Below are positions 5,223 through 19,888 of a DNA stretch of 27,386 bases, piece by piece. A program made the translations under genes and the position numbers. The notes beneath the pieces were generated by a model, which saw only the letters and a list, made by a program, of their open reading frames with translations, was not told where the DNA came from and searched no databases. Source of the DNA: a virus (lineage: Duplodnaviria; Heunggongvirae; Uroviricota; Caudoviricetes). Every line of letters starts with the position of its first letter. Positions within the stretch are counted from its first letter, which is position 1. The DNA lies in IMG/VR virus record IMGVR_UViG_2648501669_000002, positions 1 to 27,386 of that record; one strand, written 5' to 3'.

Positions 5223-5612
5223 ATGATTGACGCTCATGACTTCACAAGATGGGTGCGGACACAGGACACCCGTCTGGCTCCCGTTCTTCAGGGATTATTT
5301 GATCTTTACATCCGTGGTCGTGACAACAGAGCACGCACTACAAAACCGGAGAATGCGGACACCCTTTATTTCACAGTAGACGACTGCTACCGCGTGGACT
5401 TCACACCACACGGGCTGGCGTTGCACTGCCTGACACCACACGGCGAATCACTGCTGGCGTATTACGACTCCCCGGCCTCCGTATTCGCGGCAATGCTGGC
5501 GCATCGCACTGCTGGCGGGTGTGCCTCGCTGAGTGAATACACCGCTGAATTTAACCGCCTTTCCGCCATCTTCTCGCAGGAGTGGCAGCGCGTGACGGGA
5601 TACCAGCCATGA
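5223..5612 (+). CDS. Hypothetical protein (129 aa), translationally coupled to gpA
   Basis: Track ORF with AAAGAG SD; stop overlaps the ATG of the replication gene (ATGA at 5609-5612). Confidence 0.55.
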   Translation: MIDAHDFTRWVRTQDTRLAPVLQGLFDLYIRGRDNRARTTKPENADTLYFTVDDCYRVDFTPHGLALHCLTPHGESLLAYYDSPASVFAAMLAHRTAGGCASLSEYTAEFNRLSAIFSQEWQRVTGYQP

Positions 5613-8434
5613 GCGAGTTTGCATGGAGCTGGAATGAACCACGACCAGCCATTGATCCGGCCAGATTTACGGAGCGCAGGCAGGAAACTGAAACCGACCT
5701 GCAACGCGCCATCCGTTACTACCTTGAGGCAGACAAAAGGGCACAGGAAGAACAGGAAGCGAAGGAAGAAGCCTTTTTCGCACAATCCGCCATGGGTAAA
5801 AAACTCATGGCATCCCTTGAGGAAGCCGGACAGCGTGAAAAGCTGGCACAGAGCATCATCAGTAAGCGCCGGGCAACAGAACAAGACCCAGTAGCCCGTG
5901 CCTTTGCTACACTAAAGGCACTACCTGTTTATCTGCGTGAACCACTGAGCCGCCACCTCTCTTTCCTGCGCAAAAAACAGGAAGCCGATCGCCAGAAAGG
6001 CAAAAAGAGCTGGCAGGCGGAACGCTATGCACGCGGAACCCTGCGCAAAATATTCGAACGTCTGGATCGCACTGACGGACGCTGGCTGACACCGGGTTAT
6101 CGCTCCCTTGCCGGGCGCGAACGCCTGGACGATTTGCTTTACCTGCCGCAGCTCAACAAGCACCAGATACAGACGCTGGCCACCATGATCGCGGCGATGT
6201 TCAGCAGCACCTTCGAAACACTCTGCGATGGCTTTGGTGCCAGAGATGGCGAGCTGACCATGGATGTAATGTTGAAGGCTTACCGGATGCTGGCTCGTAT
6301 CGCATTACGCCTGCACATCATGCCGCCACATTACGAAGCCCTGAACAAGAGCGAACCGGATACGGAACTGCTGCCGGGTGCAATCCTTCGCCTGACCTGT
6401 GCGGACTGGTGGAAACGCAAACTGTGGCTGTTACGTTGCGAGTGGAGAGAAGAACAACTCCGCGCCGCCTGTCTGGTTTCCAGAAAAACATCGCCTTATC
6501 TGAGCCAGGACGCGTTAAGCGAGTTTCGCGCACAGCGCGAGAAAACACGCGATTTCCTGAAAAGTTTCATGCTGGAAAACGAAGACGGGTTCACGATTGA
6601 TCTCGAGACAGTGTATTACGCGGGAGTAAGTAACCCGGTTCACCGTAAGGCAGAAATGATGGCCACCATGAAGGGGCTGGAACTTCTGGCTGAAGCCCGT
6701 GGTGACAAAGCGGTGTTTCTGACTGTCACCTGCCCGTCAAAATACCACGCAACAACGGAGAACGGTCATCCGAATCCCAAATGGAACGGGGCCACCATGC
6801 GCGACTCCAGCGATTACCTGGTTAACACGTTTTTTGCGGCGGTCCGCAAGAAACTGAACCGCGACGGCCTGCGCTGGTATGGCATCCGCACGGTGGAGCC
6901 TCACCATGACGGCACCGTGCACTGGCATATGATGGTCTTTGCCCATCCGGAAGAAATCGACACCATTGTGTCCCACACCCGCGATATTGCCATTCAGGAA
7001 GATCGTCACGAGCTGGGCGATGATATTACTCCGCGCTTTAAGGCGGAGTATGTAGACGGCTCAAAAGGCACGCCAACCAGCTACATCGCCACCTACATCG
7101 GAAAGAACCTGGACAGCCGCGCCGTGGATGGCATCGACCCGAAAACGGGCAAGCCACGCGTTGACCACGAAACAGGAAAATCAATGGCCGAGAGCGTGGA
7201 GCGCGCCATCGGCTGGGCGCGCCTTCACCGGGTCCGCCAGTTCCAGTTCTTTGGCATTCCCTCCCGTCAGGTGTGGCGTGAACTCCGCCGCCTTGCCAGC
7301 CAGATGGCACGCAACCCGGAAGGCCAGCAACGGCTGAAGGATGACGCAATGGACGCGGTTCTTGCTGCCGCTGATGCCGGATGTTTTGCCACCTACATTG
7401 AGAAACAGGGCGGCGTACTTGTTCCACGCAAAGACTACCTGATTCGCACCGCCTACGACCTCGCAGATGAGCTGAACGATTACGGTGAACAGAGCGTACA
7501 GATTTACGGGATCTGGTCGCCGCTCATCGGGGAGTCTTCCCGCGTATGTACACATCCGGATAACTGGAAGCTGGTAAGACGCAAACCGGAAGCGGGAGAC
7601 AGCGCCCGCGAAAATGGTTTTGACCTTCAGGGCGGCCCTGCCGCCCCTTGGACTCATGGCAATAACTGTCCCCGTGTACAGGAAACAGGCAACAGCGGGA
7701 CAGAACTGTCGGAAGAGCAACCAACACCGTGGCCGCAGATCCCTGACAGCGTTGATGTGGATGAATGGATGCGCTCACTGAAACGGCACGAACGCCGGGC
7801 GCTGATGCGTTCGCTGCGTGACAAACAGGCAAAAAACAGCAGTGATGAAATGCAGAGCTGGACACAGAGCCGCAAACAGCCGCGACCTTTGCCTGATAAC
7901 CACGAGTTACTCGCTAAAGAATGGCGGGAGTCTGCTGAATCTCTCGGCCTGCATATTGGTGAACAGCAGATGCAGCACCTGTTACGGGGCGGCAGTCTGT
8001 ACGTTGACGGCAGCATCATTGCACCGCAGGGATTTGAAATTGTACGCAAACCGGATACCCGCCCGGACAGCCGAATCACGCAGCTCTGGCAGCGCCTGAG
8101 CCGTAATCACGGCGTAAGCAGCACGGAGATCCGCCATAACCCGGTCGCCAGTTATCTGGAACAGCTAGGGGCATCAGACCCCGAAGCCGCCGCACGCCTG
8201 GCATCCACACTTCAGCAAGACCAGAACACCATGAAAACACCCGTTACCGTGCTTTCTGACATGCTGCGCGCCATCCGTGACGCAGAGCACGCACAGAGAA
8301 TCAGTGAAACCACTGAACGCGCCCGCCGCAAAGCAAACCTGCTGCGGGGTGGCCTGACCAGTGGAAACAAAAAACAGACAGAAACGGGATTCACAAATCC
8401 CGTAAATGAGCAAAAAACGCGCCGCGATATATGA
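5609..8434 (+). CDS. A: Rolling-circle replication initiation endonuclease, P2 gpA family
   Basis: Track ORF 5582..8434 (GTG at 5582; ATG at 5609 coupled to the upstream stop is preferred). Contains the HUH-type motif VEPHHDGTVHWHMMVFAH and a paired-tyrosine segment TSYIATYIGKN, as in the P2 gpA endonuclease domain, plus an FLTVTCPSKYH motif. At 941 aa it is longer than P2 gpA (about 760 aa, from memory). Confidence 0.85.
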   Translation: MSEFAWSWNEPRPAIDPARFTERRQETETDLQRAIRYYLEADKRAQEEQEAKEEAFFAQSAMGKKLMASLEEAGQREKLAQSIISKRRATEQDPVARAFATLKALPVYLREPLSRHLSFLRKKQEADRQKGKKSWQAERYARGTLRKIFERLDRTDGRWLTPGYRSLAGRERLDDLLYLPQLNKHQIQTLATMIAAMFSSTFETLCDGFGARDGELTMDVMLKAYRMLARIALRLHIMPPHYEALNKSEPDTELLPGAILRLTCADWWKRKLWLLRCEWREEQLRAACLVSRKTSPYLSQDALSEFRAQREKTRDFLKSFMLENEDGFTIDLETVYYAGVSNPVHRKAEMMATMKGLELLAEARGDKAVFLTVTCPSKYHATTENGHPNPKWNGATMRDSSDYLVNTFFAAVRKKLNRDGLRWYGIRTVEPHHDGTVHWHMMVFAHPEEIDTIVSHTRDIAIQEDRHELGDDITPRFKAEYVDGSKGTPTSYIATYIGKNLDSRAVDGIDPKTGKPRVDHETGKSMAESVERAIGWARLHRVRQFQFFGIPSRQVWRELRRLASQMARNPEGQQRLKDDAMDAVLAAADAGCFATYIEKQGGVLVPRKDYLIRTAYDLADELNDYGEQSVQIYGIWSPLIGESSRVCTHPDNWKLVRRKPEAGDSARENGFDLQGGPAAPWTHGNNCPRVQETGNSGTELSEEQPTPWPQIPDSVDVDEWMRSLKRHERRALMRSLRDKQAKNSSDEMQSWTQSRKQPRPLPDNHELLAKEWRESAESLGLHIGEQQMQHLLRGGSLYVDGSIIAPQGFEIVRKPDTRPDSRITQLWQRLSRNHGVSSTEIRHNPVASYLEQLGASDPEAAARLASTLQQDQNTMKTPVTVLSDMLRAIRDAEHAQRISETTERARRKANLLRGGLTSGNKKQTETGFTNPVNEQKTRRDI
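8384..8403. repeat. Palindrome ACGGGATT-CACA-AATCCCGT (copy 1, inside the 3' end of gpA)
   Basis: Read directly: perfect 8-bp arms. Confidence 0.45.
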
Positions 8435-8456
8435 AGCGCGCACAAAACAGGCGAAA

Positions 8457-8476
8457 GCGGGAGTTCAGAATCCCGT
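8457..8476. repeat. Related imperfect palindrome GCGGGAGTTCAGAATCCCGT (copy 2, upstream of parM)
   Basis: Shares the GAATCCCGTAA half with copy 1; centres about 73 bp apart; 34 nt upstream of the parM ATG. Confidence 0.4.
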
Positions 8477-8509
8477 AACCGATTAATTAATCAACATAAG
8501 GAAATCGAC

Positions 8510-9469
8510 ATGAAAATTTGTATCGACGACGGCTCCACCAACATCAAGCTGGCATGGACTGAGAACGGCGAACGCCGCAACGCCATCAGCCCGAACAGCT
8601 TCAAGTCGGAATGGTCAGCGCCGTTCGGTGGCACGCAGCCCGCGAACTACATGCTTGATGGCGTGCGCTATGGTTTTGATCCGGTCAGCGATCGCTTTGT
8701 CCAGACGACCGACACGCAATACCAGTACAGCGATGTGAATGTTATTGCCATTCATCATGCGCTGGTCAAATCAGGCATCACACCACAGGAGGTGGATGTG
8801 GTTGTCACCCTGCCACTGAGCGAGTATTTCGATACAAACGCACAGCCGGACATGGCCAACATCAGCCGCAAAAAAGCGAACGTTATGCGCCCGGTGGAGT
8901 ACCAGAACGGCGAAGCATTCACTATCCGTAACGTGCGGGTTATGCCTGAATCCATTCCGGCAGGCTTTAAAGCACTGGCTGACATGAGTCCGTTTGAATC
9001 CCTGCTGATTGTGGATTTGGGCGGAACCACGCTGGATGTGGCAAAGGTTCAGGGGCAACTGGCAGGTATCAGCCAGGTGTTTTGCGATCCACACGTAGGC
9101 GTTTCTCTGATGGCCGATGCCGTGCTGTCGGTGATGGCCACCAACGGTATGCGTACCAGTCACCACATCGCTAATACCATTATCGAACATCGCCACGATG
9201 AAGCCTGGCTGCGCCAGCACATCCACAATGACGCGCATTACGCCAGCCTGATGGCAGTTATTCGTGAAAAGGAGGAAACACTGAAACAACGCGTGATCCG
9301 CGCGCTGGCGGGTTTTTCGGGTTACGGGCGGGTGATGGTTGTCGGTGGAGGGGCGGAGATTGTGGCACCCGCCATCCGCGAAGCCTGCGGAGTTAATGCG
9401 ACTTTCATCGCGGACGGGGTGCCACAGTTTGCTCTGGTTAATGGGCTGTACGCAATGGACAAGGAGTAA
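8510..9469 (+). CDS. parM: ParM-like actin-type segregation ATPase
   Basis: Track ORF of 319 aa. N-terminus MKICIDDGSTNIKLAW closely matches plasmid R1 ParM (MLVFIDDGSTNIKLQW, from memory), with further ParM-like segments (ISPNSFK, QYSDVNVIAIHHAL, DLGGTTLD). AAGGA SD. Confidence 0.85.
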   Translation: MKICIDDGSTNIKLAWTENGERRNAISPNSFKSEWSAPFGGTQPANYMLDGVRYGFDPVSDRFVQTTDTQYQYSDVNVIAIHHALVKSGITPQEVDVVVTLPLSEYFDTNAQPDMANISRKKANVMRPVEYQNGEAFTIRNVRVMPESIPAGFKALADMSPFESLLIVDLGGTTLDVAKVQGQLAGISQVFCDPHVGVSLMADAVLSVMATNGMRTSHHIANTIIEHRHDEAWLRQHIHNDAHYASLMAVIREKEETLKQRVIRALAGFSGYGRVMVVGGGAEIVAPAIREACGVNATFIADGVPQFALVNGLYAMDKE

Positions 9470-9473
9470 ACCA

Positions 9474-9785
9474 ATGACGACACCAACCAGACGGATAAGT
9501 TTCTATCTGAAGCCCGCCGCCGTCAAGAACGAAGGCGAAGCATGCGCCTGGCTGGACAGCCTTACACCAGAAGCCCGCAAAAGCGGCCAACGCGTGGCTT
9601 TTCTGGCCGGGCTGGCACTTCTGAAAATGAATCCGGCAGAGGCTTACCGACTGGCTGCATGGGCTGATGATGAAGCGTTATCAGTGACACAGACCAGGAC
9701 AGAACGCCCCGCATCACAGCCAGTATCAACCGCACAGATAACCAGCCAGATGGCCGGGAATATCCAGGCGTTATTTCCTGAATAA
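9474..9785 (+). CDS. parR: ParR-like centromere-binding adaptor
   Basis: In-frame Met 46 of track ORF 9339..9785, 4 nt after the parM stop. RRISFYLKP...LDSLTPEARKSGQRVAFLAGLAL parallels R1 ParR (RRTIAFKLNP...LDSIPQGERSRLNRAALTAGLAL, from memory). Confidence 0.7.
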   Translation: MTTPTRRISFYLKPAAVKNEGEACAWLDSLTPEARKSGQRVAFLAGLALLKMNPAEAYRLAAWADDEALSVTQTRTERPASQPVSTAQITSQMAGNIQALFPE

Positions 9786-9791
9786 CACAAC

Positions 9792-9813
9792 ATCAGGGCA
9801 TATTTGCCCTGAT
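9792..9813. other. Perfect hairpin (9-bp stem ATCAGGGCA / TGCCCTGAT, 4-nt loop) just after the parR stop
   Basis: Read directly; no trailing U-tract, so a regulatory or processing role is as likely as termination. Confidence 0.3.
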
Positions 9814-9848
9814 ATCCCCTCTCAAACAAGGCAGCAACAAACTGCCCG

Positions 9849-9876
9849 TTGAATAACACAAATTACATGTTATGAT
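9849..9876 (+). promoter_or_regulatory. Candidate sigma70 promoter (TTGAAT-16 nt-TATGAT) for the 9900..10660 cassette
   Basis: Read directly; the -35 overlaps the second copy of the 12-bp direct repeat TGAATAACACAA (9779-9790 and 9850-9861). Confidence 0.35.
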
Positions 9877-9899: not shown

Positions 9900-10286
9900 G
9901 TGTCTTACGTTATGAATGATCAAGATTATGGGCTTGATACCCTATTGGATATGCACGGCTACCAGCACCACATGGATAATGGCTACTGGTGGAAGATTGA
10001 AGCCTACCGGGTCAGCCCAAGCCCATTCAGACCCCACGGGATACGTTACAATCTGACATTACATGACCAGTACAATTCCCGCATATTTGGGATGGATAAT
10101 GCTCATGGAATAAAACCACCGAAGAAGGGCCGTTTCACAGGGAAATTAACTGTTTACGACCATGTGCACCGCACAACATTTGACAAAGGCTATCCCTATG
10201 AATTCATTTCTGCGGAACAGCTTTTATCTGACTTCTTCGATAACGTAGATCGCATCATTGACGAAATCACAAGGGGGAATCAATGA
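9900..10286 (+). CDS. Uncharacterised protein (128 aa), candidate toxin/effector of a two-gene module
   Basis: Track ORF (GTG at 9900; first ATG at 9912). AT-richer than flanking phage genes. His/aromatic-rich segments (HGYQHHMDNGYWWK, YDHVHRTTFDKGYPYEF). Stop overlaps the start of the next gene (ATGA at 10283-10286). Confidence 0.6.
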   Translation: MSYVMNDQDYGLDTLLDMHGYQHHMDNGYWWKIEAYRVSPSPFRPHGIRYNLTLHDQYNSRIFGMDNAHGIKPPKKGRFTGKLTVYDHVHRTTFDKGYPYEFISAEQLLSDFFDNVDRIIDEITRGNQ

Positions 10287-10660
10287 AAGCCCGTATCGGG
10301 ATTATCCCTGAAAATATCCTCCGCCAGCGGCTACTGGATGTCGCCAGAGGAAAACGTAAACCACTGCCAGATGAACCAAAAGTATGGTTTTCTTCACTGC
10401 ACGCTGTAGGGCAAGCTCTGAGTAACGAAAACATTGCTCTGTTACGTCTGATGGATGAAGAAAAACCTCAAACAATGACAGAGTTGGCAGAAATGTCAGG
10501 CAGGAAACTGAGCAATCTTTCAGTAACCTTAAAAATGCTGAGCGGCTACGGTTTTGTCAGCCTGGAAAAGAAAGGCAATACCATTCTCCCGAAAGCATTA
10601 TTCACCGATTTTGAAATCATCATTGATCCATCTGTCGGAACCACTCATCGGGCCGCCTGA
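10283..10660 (+). CDS. Winged-HTH DNA-binding protein (125 aa), candidate antitoxin/regulator
   Basis: Track ORF. Segment PQTMTELAEMSGRKLSNLSVTLKMLSGYGFVSLEKKGNTI has a MarR/wHTH-like helix-turn-helix-wing pattern; translationally coupled to the upstream ORF. Confidence 0.65.
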   Translation: MKARIGIIPENILRQRLLDVARGKRKPLPDEPKVWFSSLHAVGQALSNENIALLRLMDEEKPQTMTELAEMSGRKLSNLSVTLKMLSGYGFVSLEKKGNTILPKALFTDFEIIIDPSVGTTHRAA

Positions 10661-10913: not shown

Positions 10914-11171
10914 CTATCCAGCCTGCAACAGCTCCAGCGCCATCTGTTTTTCTTCCGGGCGCATCCGTTCAATCAACAGCTTTAACACACCGTTATCCAG
11001 CCCGCTGGGCACCAGTGTGTGCGAGTAGGTCAGATTCATCACCCAGGTATGTCCGCACTCGAGACGGGTGCAACGGTAATACACATCAGCAAACTGATCG
11101 GTTTTCCAGGCTGTTTTCTCAATCACTGCACGAGCACCACAGCAATGACACCGCGCTTTCTGTCTGCGCAT
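10914..11171 (-). CDS. ogr: Ogr/Delta-family zinc-finger late transcription activator
   Basis: In-frame Met 24 of track ORF 10914..11240, preceded on the minus strand by GGGAGGTGGAAA. Cys pattern C-x2-C...(23 aa)...C-x4-C (CHCC...CTRLEC) matches the P2 Ogr zinc-finger topology (CPLC...CQNVNC, from memory). Confidence 0.7.
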   Translation of the reverse strand: MRRQKARCHCCGARAVIEKTAWKTDQFADVYYRCTRLECGHTWVMNLTYSHTLVPSGLDNGVLKLLIERMRPEEKQMALELLQAG

Positions 11172-11236
11172 TTTCCACCTCCCGGAACAACGTTTTACTG
11201 CTGCTGATTTTACCCGCTCCTTCTCCATGTCGCACA

Positions 11237-12271
11237 TCACTCCGTGGCTTCATTAAATTCAAGAATAAATTCCACCTGCCCCAGTCGCCTGATATCAGGG
11301 TCACTATTGATTCCCTCCATAATCAGGCGGCGCATCGGAATAACCTCATCTCTGTAATATGCCTCGCGGGATTTCAGCGGATCACCAAGCCCGGCCGTAT
11401 TTGCGGGAATGATGCCGGCAAGTCCGGGTGGAAAACGGTGCGCAACGAGCTGATCCTGGGCACTGATGGTTTTTATATTCAGGAATTCATCTTTTGTACC
11501 TGAATCCCCGATAGGGATCACCTTAACGCCTTCTTTGTCTCCGCCAGGTATATTGATAAACATGGATTTAAAATTGCCCGCCCCTTTTGACGCCTCTATC
11601 TTTTTACGGAATTCCGCCTCGAGCTCGGGATCCATGTCCGGGTCAGTGGAATACAGGATATAACCAAGATGTGCGCCGTTCTTGTAATACTTGCGGCGAA
11701 AGCGGGTGGCATCCACATTCAGCATGGCAGATTCCATCCCGTGAATATAATCCGGGACACCGTAAACCTGCTGTTGTGGGTCATAAATTGCCACGAACAC
11801 CACTTCGCCTGGCGGGTAAACGAGATCTTCCAGTGCCGCCTGCACAATCACCGTGCCACCTTCGTTGTTGCGTCGCAGGTACAGAGAAGGCAACGTATGC
11901 AGGCGCACCACCCGCCCGAAGCCATTGCGCACTTTAAGCAGCCCCATATCCCCGAATATCAGCAGATTGGTCACTGCTGCCGCCATGGCGGCGTGTGTCA
12001 TACCACCACCACCCCGAAAACCCTGCATGATCATATTCACGCGCGCACGCAATACCGCGCCGTGATACGGTGCGATATTGGACAACATGGCGAGATCCAT
12101 GCGCTCAATGGGCGGCGTGTACCAGCCGTTATAGCCATCCCAGAGCGAGCCGTAATAACAGCCCCATGCAGCGACCGGTTCCGGGTCACCAAATTCAATA
12201 AACGTCATTTTGCTGGCTGTTTTTTTTGCCACGCCATCGTGTAACACGGGGTATTTTTTCTTTTTACTCAT
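11237..12271 (-). CDS. Q: Portal protein, P2 gpQ-like
   Basis: Track ORF of 344 aa, the same length as P2 gpQ, directly downstream of and overlapping the terminase ATPase gene on the same strand, in the conserved P2 Q-P arrangement. Confidence 0.85.
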   Translation of the reverse strand: MSKKKKYPVLHDGVAKKTASKMTFIEFGDPEPVAAWGCYYGSLWDGYNGWYTPPIERMDLAMLSNIAPYHGAVLRARVNMIMQGFRGGGGMTHAAMAAAVTNLLIFGDMGLLKVRNGFGRVVRLHTLPSLYLRRNNEGGTVIVQAALEDLVYPPGEVVFVAIYDPQQQVYGVPDYIHGMESAMLNVDATRFRRKYYKNGAHLGYILYSTDPDMDPELEAEFRKKIEASKGAGNFKSMFINIPGGDKEGVKVIPIGDSGTKDEFLNIKTISAQDQLVAHRFPPGLAGIIPANTAGLGDPLKSREAYYRDEVIPMRRLIMEGINSDPDIRRLGQVEFILEFNEATE

Positions 12272-18739: not shown

Positions 18740-19888
18740 ATGACCTGGCCATCTGTCACAATTGAACAGTACAACACGTTCAGTAGCTCGCCGGACGGCG
18801 TGGAAAATACGCTGCTGTTTGTGGGCAATGCACAAAACAACAAAGGTAAGGTTCTGCCGGTTAATGCCAACAGCGATCTGGATGAACTGCTGGGAACAAA
18901 CGCCAGCCCGCTGAAGAACTTCCTTCGGTCTGCGCTGACCAATGCCGGACAGAATGCCTTTTTCTATGTTGCCGTTCTGCCGGAAGCCGGCAAAGGCAAA
19001 GAAGCGACGCCAGCCTGCCAGGTATGGCAGAACGCCATACTGGCGGCTCAGGAAACTGTTTCAGTTGAAGGCGTGGTGATCACCGAACCGGTCAGCACGA
19101 AGGATGACATCAACGCCATACAGGCGTTACGTCAGACCATCATCAATAAATATCAGCGCCGCATCTGGTTCATTCTGACCATTGCCGCCAATAACGGCAG
19201 CAAAACCTGGGCAGATTACGTTGCTGAACTGACCACGCTACAGGAAGGCATCGCCGCCCCGCAAATCATGCTGGTTCCGGAAATTTTTGGATTTGAACCG
19301 GGCGTTCTTGCCGGCCGTCTGTGTAACAGCGCCGTCACCATTGCTGATAGTCCGGCGCGTGTGGCAACCGGAGCGCTGTCCGCACTGAAGACCACGGAAC
19401 GCCCGAAAGACAGCGCAGGGCAGGCAATTGATCTCGACACTCTGCAGGCACTGGCAACCGCCCGCTACAGCGTGCCCATGTGGTATGCCGACTATGACGG
19501 CCTTTACTGGGCTGACGGTGTAACACTTGAGGTGGAAGGCGGGGACTACAACGTCATTGAGCATGTCCGCATTGCTGATAAGGTGGCGCGCCGCGTGCGG
19601 CTGATGGCCATCCCCAAGATTGCCGACCGCTCGCTGAACAGCACGCCGGGCAGCATTGCCGCACATGAAACGCTGTTTGCCCGCCCACTGCGTGCCATGG
19701 CGAAATCCATGCAAATTAACGGCATCACGTTTCCGGGCGAAGTGAAATCGCCCCGGAAAGGCGACGTAGTTATCACCTGGCAGGACGAAAAGACGGTCAG
19801 CATCAGCATTGTCGTCCGCCCTTACGCCTGCCCTAAAACCATCAAAGTGGGCATTCAGCTGGATAAATCTCTGGAGGAAAACGCATGA
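18740..19888 (+). CDS. Major tail structural protein, sheath-like (382 aa)
   Basis: In-frame Met 45 of track ORF 18608..19888 with CAGGAG SD 7 nt upstream; size and position (before a tube-like gene, chaperone and tape measure) fit a contractile-tail sheath. No clear similarity to P2 FI recalled. Confidence 0.5.
   Translation: MTWPSVTIEQYNTFSSSPDGVENTLLFVGNAQNNKGKVLPVNANSDLDELLGTNASPLKNFLRSALTNAGQNAFFYVAVLPEAGKGKEATPACQVWQNAILAAQETVSVEGVVITEPVSTKDDINAIQALRQTIINKYQRRIWFILTIAANNGSKTWADYVAELTTLQEGIAAPQIMLVPEIFGFEPGVLAGRLCNSAVTIADSPARVATGALSALKTTERPKDSAGQAIDLDTLQALATARYSVPMWYADYDGLYWADGVTLEVEGGDYNVIEHVRIADKVARRVRLMAIPKIADRSLNSTPGSIAAHETLFARPLRAMAKSMQINGITFPGEVKSPRKGDVVITWQDEKTVSISIVVRPYACPKTIKVGIQLDKSLEENA

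Follow-up and report, generated by a model that had tools for sequence, protein, structure and literature searches.

Paired palindromes upstream of parM in a P88-like prophage are candidate ParR-binding sites

Introduction

The junction between a phage replication gene and an actin-type partition module is the subject of this study. It lies in the virus record IMGVR_UViG_2648501669_000002 of IMG/VR (Caudoviricetes), of which a stretch of 27,386 nucleotides was analysed, here called the window. The region of the junction is 95-97% identical to that of P88-like phages (genus Xuanwuvirus, Peduoviridae, P2-like), including P88, P884B11 and Citrobacter phiSM, and by its sequence the window is a P88-like prophage. 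Its genes are arranged in the order gpA, parM (R1-type), parR, variable cargo, ogr and portal. The plus-strand gene gpA (5609-8434) encodes a replication endonuclease (PF05840, E 1e-130) that is 30% identical to gpA of P2, and its 3' end overlaps the first of two repeated palindromic sites. It is followed on the same strand by parM (8510-9469), which encodes an R1-type actin-like partition ATPase (PF06406, E 4e-82; PF21523, E 1e-68), and, 4 nt past the parM stop codon, by parR (9474-9785), which encodes a protein of 103 amino acids (aa) of the StbB family (PF10784, E 4e-24), the presumed centromere-binding adaptor. An initial annotation of the window had named these genes gpA, parM and parR-like, names that the family assignments show to be correct. 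It had also pointed to two related palindromes at the gpA-parM junction as candidate parC-like sites, that is, as cis sites bound by ParR.

The junction is common. It was found (window 8300-8560) in 1304 of 5426 complete Escherichia coli genomes, O157:H7 strains among them, and 1441 of its 1443 places in these genomes are chromosomal. Here, we describe a computational analysis of the two palindromes, of their conservation in close and distant relatives, and of the proteins encoded next to them. We present evidence that the palindromes exist as a non-random pair that is kept together with parMR, at the level of DNA, across phage lineages. We propose that they are probably the ParR-binding, parC-like sites of the phage's type II (ParMRC) partition module, and we set this proposal against other functions that could be assigned to them.

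Results

The two palindromes are the cores of a longer direct repeat

Both palindromes lie at the coordinates first given for them, one within the gpA reading frame and the other intergenic, 73 bp apart, and both end in CCCGTAA. Site 1, ACGGGATTCACAAATCCCGT (8384-8403), is a perfect 8+4+8 palindrome situated in the gpA reading frame 31 nt ahead of the stop codon (8432-8434). Site 2, GCGGGAGTTCAGAATCCCGT (8457-8476), is an imperfect palindrome, in which the CGGGA/TCCCG arms are perfect and six of seven arm positions pair with a 4-nt centre. The similarity between the two places reaches further than the 20-mers originally noted. The palindromes form the cores of a direct repeat of 38 nt with a period of 73 bp (8368-8405 and 8441-8478), whose units are identical at 28 of 38 positions (74%). 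Unit 1, in the last codons of gpA, consists of an A-rich left flank, CAAAAAACAGACAGAAA, followed by palindrome 1; unit 2, which is intergenic, consists of CACAAAACAGGCGAAAG followed by palindrome 2. The spacer between the units (8406-8440) holds the gpA stop codon and a GC-rich inverted repeat around GATATATGAA.

This repeat is the top 38-nt local direct repeat in the window, and its score of 28 was reached in none of 200 first-order Markov simulations, the maximum among which was 27. A looser statistic, met by any pair of palindromes with 5-bp arms that lie no more than 150 bp apart and share at least 14 of 20 positions, was satisfied in 13 of 200 simulations (6.5%). Taken alone, and judged by the statistics of a single sequence, the palindrome pair is moderately unusual. 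The looser statistic also flagged a second related pair at 19029/19110, which lies within coding sequence and looks like chance. The motif CGGGA-N8-TCCCG occurs in the window at the two sites only, and a motif search of the whole window and of the whole P88 genome returned no further convincing copies.

Both dyads lie 34-126 bp upstream of parM. Measured at the centre of the GGG-N10-CCC core that they share, site 1 is 116.5 bp and site 2 is 43.5 bp ahead of the parM ATG. Between site 2 and the gene there is a conserved leader (8481-8502, plus strand) that comprises GATTAATTAATC, a perfect 12-bp palindrome at 8481-8492, the sequence CAACAT, and the parM ribosome-binding site AAGGA. The P88-like, Hafnia and Plesiomonas lineages all share the leader core ATTAAT.AA without change, and the leader carries the Shine-Dalgarno sequence.

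Position and spacing are kept in two distant P2-like lineages

Homologues of the window ParM split into two groups, a tight clade with at least 91% identity and plasmid ParMs with at most 55%, with a few chromosomal proteins between them. Among P2-like prophages, ParM is identical to that of the window at 62% of positions in Hafnia, 63% in Plesiomonas, 57-58% in Serratia and 54% in Enterobacter. The contigs of all four genera have the P2-like order gpA ... parM, parR, cargo, portal, terminase, and ogr precedes the portal gene in the Hafnia and Plesiomonas loci.

In Hafnia and Plesiomonas, two GGG-N10-CCC elements are found in the 130 bp before parM, where the total per 11-kb locus is three to six. 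Relative to the parM ATG their centres are at -120.5 and -47.5 in Hafnia and at -123.5 and -51.5 in Plesiomonas, as compared with -116.5 and -43.5 in the window, and the spacings are thus 73 bp in Hafnia, 72 bp in Plesiomonas and 73 bp in the window. When the three lineages are aligned, both sites fall in register with no gap between them; the sequence of the spacer is barely conserved, and its length is kept. The A-rich flank is absent from the sites of both genera. In Hafnia, an open reading frame (ORF) of 167 aa with no relation to gpA covers site 1, in another frame, and in Plesiomonas the C-terminal tail of gpA over site 1 has no similarity to the tail encoded in the window, while the DNA site is kept. 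Since the geometry is retained although the overlapping ORF is unrelated or in another frame, the constraint acts on the DNA and not on the protein. This independence from the overlapping ORF, together with the weak hairpins of the Hafnia and Plesiomonas sites and the uncompensated stem-breaking changes in close relatives, indicates an element that is recognised as double-stranded DNA and moves together with parMR. The parC-like reading put forward in the initial annotation is therefore strengthened, as position and a spacing of 72-73 bp are kept at a ParM identity of 62-63%, whatever ORF overlaps the sites.

That reading had been made to depend on conservation of the repeats wherever parMR-like genes are conserved. 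In Hafnia and Plesiomonas the repeats are kept in both position and spacing; in Serratia and Enterobacter another arrangement takes their place. Loci of the Serratia/Enterobacter type (L088, L098, L096, L101 and L106) have two arms of about 20 nt, GGGAACGAAATAGAAAAAT, inverted and about 30 bp apart, followed by short repeats. The arms lie about 120 to 50 bp upstream of parM and constitute a different candidate centromere. Direct repeats of ATTTCATGACC are also present upstream of the Serratia parM, and the family consensus for the left part of unit 2, ACAGGCAAAAACGGGA, is identical over 16 nt to sequence upstream of the parM of a Serratia prophage (ParM 58%). Lineage-specific repeat architecture upstream of the motor gene is expected of partition centromeres.

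Lineages intermediate between these groups were sought by scanning genome and viral contigs with the window ParM, which returned only ParMs of at least 98% identity, and by scanning viral contigs with the Hafnia and Plesiomonas ParMs, which returned one more locus, of the Enterobacter type. A ParM of 81% identity was found on a contig that begins inside parM. Three loci of other kinds were encountered. The chromosomes of Dickeya (L099) and Mangrovibacter (L100) encode ParM homologues of about 50% identity within integrated conjugative or plasmid-like elements (markers TraG_N; Rep3 plus umuDC), not within P2-like prophages. The 272-kb Salmonella IncHI2 plasmid pS2122_1 holds a P88-like segment, from early to capsid genes, with a ParM that is 99.7% identical, and a second ParM match lies elsewhere on this plasmid.

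Variation of the sites among close relatives

In 79 close relatives, with 56 distinct sequences among them, site 2 usually reads ACGGGATTTCAGAATCCCGT or (A/G)CGGGATTTAAAAATCCCGT; with an initial A, as in some relatives, the latter becomes ACGGGATTTAAAAATCCCGT, a perfect 9+2+9 palindrome. Compared with these forms, site 2 of the window is a slightly decayed copy. Across 38 distinct close relatives, the left flank of unit 1 (8368-8384) hardly varies. Within site 1, CGGGA and AATCCC are almost invariant and positions 8390, 8395, 8402 and 8403 are variable, some of the variants changing the gpA protein.

In one E. coli chromosome (EC7518, locus L104, 3480-3540), a degraded prophage carries a deletion that fuses the end of a DUF4761 gene to the equivalent of window position 8476. 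The endpoint is the last base of site 2; gpA and both dyads are lost, and parM and parR are kept. This variant of a degraded prophage says nothing about function.

Past the stop codon of parR, relatives diverge from the first base. The parMR genes and the dyads thus belong to the conserved backbone of the phage group, and the variable gpA-gpQ hotspot, as judged from this comparison, effectively begins after parR. For the same reason, no conserved repeat was found downstream of parR when the sequences of relatives after its stop codon were compared.

ParM and ParR are of the R1 type

The parM and parR genes are intact R1-type genes. The window ParM matches the structure of R1 ParM (1mwk) over residues 2-316 (E 9e-93), with about 47% identity to R1 ParM. 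The window ParR aligns with R1 StbB/ParR, its C-terminal tail included, and its sequence TRRISFYLKPA aligns with the N-terminus of R1 ParR. An actin-like ParM, a small adaptor ParR encoded downstream of it (predicted to have a ribbon-helix-helix fold), and repeats upstream of parM, three features of a type II (ParMRC) system, are present. A PADLOC scan of ParM and ParR gave no defence-system match.

The ParR alleles of Escherichia are 44-96% identical to the window ParR and have a hypervariable linker, in contrast to ParM, which is at least 98% identical in nearly all Escherichia members. Down to 44% identity, every ParR allele has kept TRRISFYLKPA at its N-terminus and NIxxLFP at its C-terminus, a pattern that suggests confined recombination or diversifying change in the middle region of the protein and that fits a DNA-reading N-terminus and a ParM-binding tail. 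A phage with a ParR allele only 53% identical to that of the window has kept both dyads, and the first 18 residues of its ParR are identical to those of the window ParR. Such joint conservation of the sites and the ParR N-terminus is indirect support for specific binding.

Discussion

Alternative functions of the sites

The two palindromes stand at an operon junction, and the hairpin of site 1 is stable (-11 kcal/mol, z -4.1); the elements could therefore act in RNA, whether by terminating or attenuating transcription, by being processed by an RNase, or by stabilising the mRNA and so setting the ratio of gpA to ParM. The minus strand of site 1 was indeed scored as terminator-like, the complement of the A-rich flank supplying a T-rich tail, but this match is weak, there is no nearby minus-strand gene needing termination, and the A-rich flank is missing in Hafnia and Plesiomonas. 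On the coding strand neither hairpin is followed by a U-tract. Site 2 folds no better than many shuffled sequences (z -1.7), the Hafnia and Plesiomonas equivalents have stems of 3-4 bp with 10-nt loops (z -0.15 to -2.7), close relatives carry stem-breaking substitutions in the hairpins without compensation, and an Rfam search of 8200-8600 found no family. The lack of a plus-strand U-tract and the lack of hairpin conservation in distant lineages rule against an intrinsic terminator, and an RNA role of any of these kinds is disfavoured and, in our judgement, unlikely. A function in DNA that does not involve ParR must also be considered, as ParR binding is itself a proposal. Palindromes of this size are typical of dimeric regulators, and site 2 ends 34 bp ahead of the parM start codon, as might be the case if the sites were operators through which another regulator, of the host or of the phage, controlled parMR. 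Against this, in the P88 genome four matches to CGGGA-N8-TCCCG with at most one mismatch were found against 1.0 expected, the two that are not our sites lie inside structural genes, and the motif does not occur at other P88 promoters beyond chance. The sites, moreover, co-occur with parMR across genera, and their half-sites resemble the iterons bound by ParR of plasmid R1. There is accordingly only a small probability that the sites belong to a regulator other than ParR.

The initial annotation had left a role in replication open. The origin of P2 lies inside gene A (rep_origin 29892, NC_001895), site 1 lies within gpA, and only about 735 bp separate the predicted nick site from the sites; they might thus be accessory sites within the phage origin at which gpA or a host replication factor binds. 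The nick sequence of P2, GCCGCGCCTCGGAGTCCTGTCAATAACTGT, nevertheless has a clear homologue elsewhere, GCCGCCCCTTGGACTCATGGCAATAACTGT, at window 7630-7670, where the aligned gpA residues read AAPWTHGNNC; this segment, homologous to the annotated nick region of the P2 origin, is the predicted gpA nick site. In Hafnia the unrelated 167-aa ORF separates the sites from gpA and they stay beside parM, and the gpA tails encoded over site 1 are not homologous between lineages. Because the nick homologue lies about 735 bp upstream of site 1, and because of the arrangement in Hafnia, it is very unlikely that the palindromes are themselves the nick site. An accessory role at the origin is likewise disfavoured, and we regard it as quite improbable. 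A functionless origin of the repeat, as the remnant of a local 73-bp duplication or as a recombination scar, would explain why a direct repeat is found at the boundary of the replication and partition modules, and would be in keeping with the conservation profile of the close family, in which the sites do no better than their flanks. But the geometry is kept in three lineages although the intervening sequence has diverged past recognition, and the boundary of the variable cargo falls after parR and not at the sites. This explanation, too, has very little probability.

Relation to known partition systems

The parC site of plasmid R1 lies upstream of parM. There, a 39-bp promoter core is flanked on each side by five direct 11-bp iterons, each of which takes up about one ParR dimer (PMC2241845). 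For comparison, a genuine R1 parC was taken from a plasmid whose ParM is identical at 319 of 320 positions to the 1mwk sequence. The window resembles R1 in having repeats directly upstream of parM, in two blocks with a spacer, along with a ParM of the same type and an adaptor of the same StbB family (PF10784). In both R1 parC and the window region the top strand is A-rich with CCC cores. An example from R1 parC is AAAACCCAAAA, and the same pattern is seen in the right half-sites of the window (AAATCCCGTAA), of Hafnia (AAACCCAAAAAC and AAATCCCAGAA) and of Plesiomonas (AAAACCCGAAA). Two copies of the Hafnia 12-mer AAACCCAAAAAC are present in R1 parC, and it was found at no other place in 104 loci; the features shared with R1 parC are limited to the pattern AAnCCCnnAA and this 12-mer of the Hafnia site. 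The systems also differ in their setting, as R1 is a plasmid and the host element here is an integrating P2-like phage, and in that one of the window sites lies inside the upstream gene. Identity of the sites with an R1-type parC was considered and rejected: two 20-bp dyads were found where five plus five iterons would be expected.

The closest match to the window locus, in its four half-sites and its biological logic, is srpMRC of the SXT/R391 integrative and conjugative elements (ICEs). Its site, srpC, is placed as R1 parC is and is bound by SrpR, and the module is expressed under the activation programme of the element (PMC4489591). Both are ParMRC-like modules on an element that is normally integrated in the chromosome. 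They differ in that the window proteins are clearly R1-type, and SrpM and SrpR only distant relatives of ParM and ParR of R1; the repeat sequences are unrelated, and the host is an ICE in one case and a phage in the other. A prophage that encodes an actin-like filament and a DNA-binding adaptor with specific sites is represented by the AlpAC-alpS system of prophage CGP3 of Corynebacterium glutamicum, in which the actin-like AlpC and the adaptor AlpA, which binds alpS, serve viral DNA transport and replication after induction (PMC5539076). This system, likened here by description, has another actin-like family, another adaptor and another host phylum.

A putative partition system is found in about one in four P2-like phages, and published comment on its role goes no further than the suggestion that it may permit maintenance as a plasmid (PMC9122126). 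The frequency reported for the partition locus between gpA and gpQ in the P2-like phages of Rousset et al. (2022) agrees with our junction count of 1304 in 5426 genomes, and the relevant passages of that paper describe no cis site. Our locus differs from theirs in that parMR belongs to the conserved backbone and the cargo begins past the parR stop codon.

Weight of the evidence and a proposed role

Several results weigh against the assignment of the sites to ParR. Two 20-bp dyads 73 bp apart are not the ten 11-bp iterons of R1. A crude weight matrix of the R1 iterons placed 1 of its top 60 window matches in 8340-8500, where 0.35 would be expected; as the matrix fails to single out the sites, their likeness to R1 is a resemblance and not membership of the R1 parC type. 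Unlike in R1, a scan of the window, able to detect near-consensus promoters only, gave no sigma-70 consensus match between the sites or next to them, and the same kind of scan found none near the sites in the upstream regions of Hafnia and Plesiomonas; weak promoter hexamers picked by hand near the sites were unconvincing, and none is claimed. Within the close family, conservation of the palindromes does not exceed that of the flanks, and polymorphism of 31-49% is seen at five positions of the sites. The different repeat arrangement of the Serratia and Enterobacter lineages means that the two-dyad design is not universal. A comparison of ParR with the sequences in the PDB gave no match to a solved structure, and an AlphaFold2 monomer model built from an alignment of 18 sequences was poor (predicted local distance difference test, pLDDT, 55), the expected N-terminal strand being modelled as a helix. 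Obligate dimers can give such poor monomer models, and the model is uninformative. Finally, a search of the literature found no paper that analyses these sites.

On balance, the palindromes are still probably ParR-binding, parC-like sites of a type II module; ParR binding, the timing of expression and a function in segregation are each inferred from sequence. A site of the parC type is expected in a system of this known kind, while the two-site layout is uncommon. In the mechanism that we envisage, ParR, an adaptor of the ribbon-helix-helix type whose gene lies 1 kb downstream, would bind each 20-bp dyad as dimers, and the core it recognises would be GGG-N10-CCC with A/T-rich inner positions. 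As the spacing of 73 bp corresponds to about seven helical turns, the two dyads would be presented on the same face of the DNA. Filaments of ParM, caught at their ends by the conserved C-terminal tail of ParR, would then push copies of the DNA apart, and ParR bound at site 2 might also dampen the expression of parMR.

In P88 the stretch from cox to parR lies entirely on one strand, downstream of the C/Cox switch. Since no promoter consensus was seen at the sites and the genes directly follow gpA on the same strand, parMR may be transcribed with the early (replication) operon; and since the element is normally integrated, such expression would mean that the complex acts on excised or replicating phage DNA and not on the prophage. 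The two dyads, with their four half-sites, would in that case form a minimal type II centromere, located partly in a replication gene, expressed with the early operon, and serving to separate or position excised and replicating genomes. This fuller model is tentative, and we consider it possible rather than probable. If true, a P2-like phage that roughly one in four E. coli genomes contains would carry a partition machine for its lytic or episomal phase, and not for plasmid inheritance. With a candidate cis site at hand, the role of an R1-type ParMRC system in an integrating phage, including which DNA it targets (prophage, excised circles or replicating genomes), becomes testable, and a centromere of two dyads would be a compact substrate for finding the smallest number of ParR dimers able to cap a ParM filament.

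Features downstream of parR

A hairpin with a 12-bp stem, AACATCAGGGCATATTTGCCCTGATATC (9789-9816), directly follows parR. It is present in variant form in P88 and missing from other relatives, and the early operon may end there. The cargo of the window (9900-10660) is a two-gene operon preceded by a promoter-like site at 9849-9876. Beyond the cargo, ogr (10914-11240) and the portal gene Q (11237-12271) are both on the minus strand. The first cargo gene (9900-10286) has no Pfam match, and the second (10283-10660) encodes an HVO_A0114/MarR-like winged-helix protein with weak PADLOC matches to CasR-type helix-turn-helix models. Situated in the P2 gpA-gpQ hotspot, the two genes could form a toxin-antitoxin pair or a defence pair.

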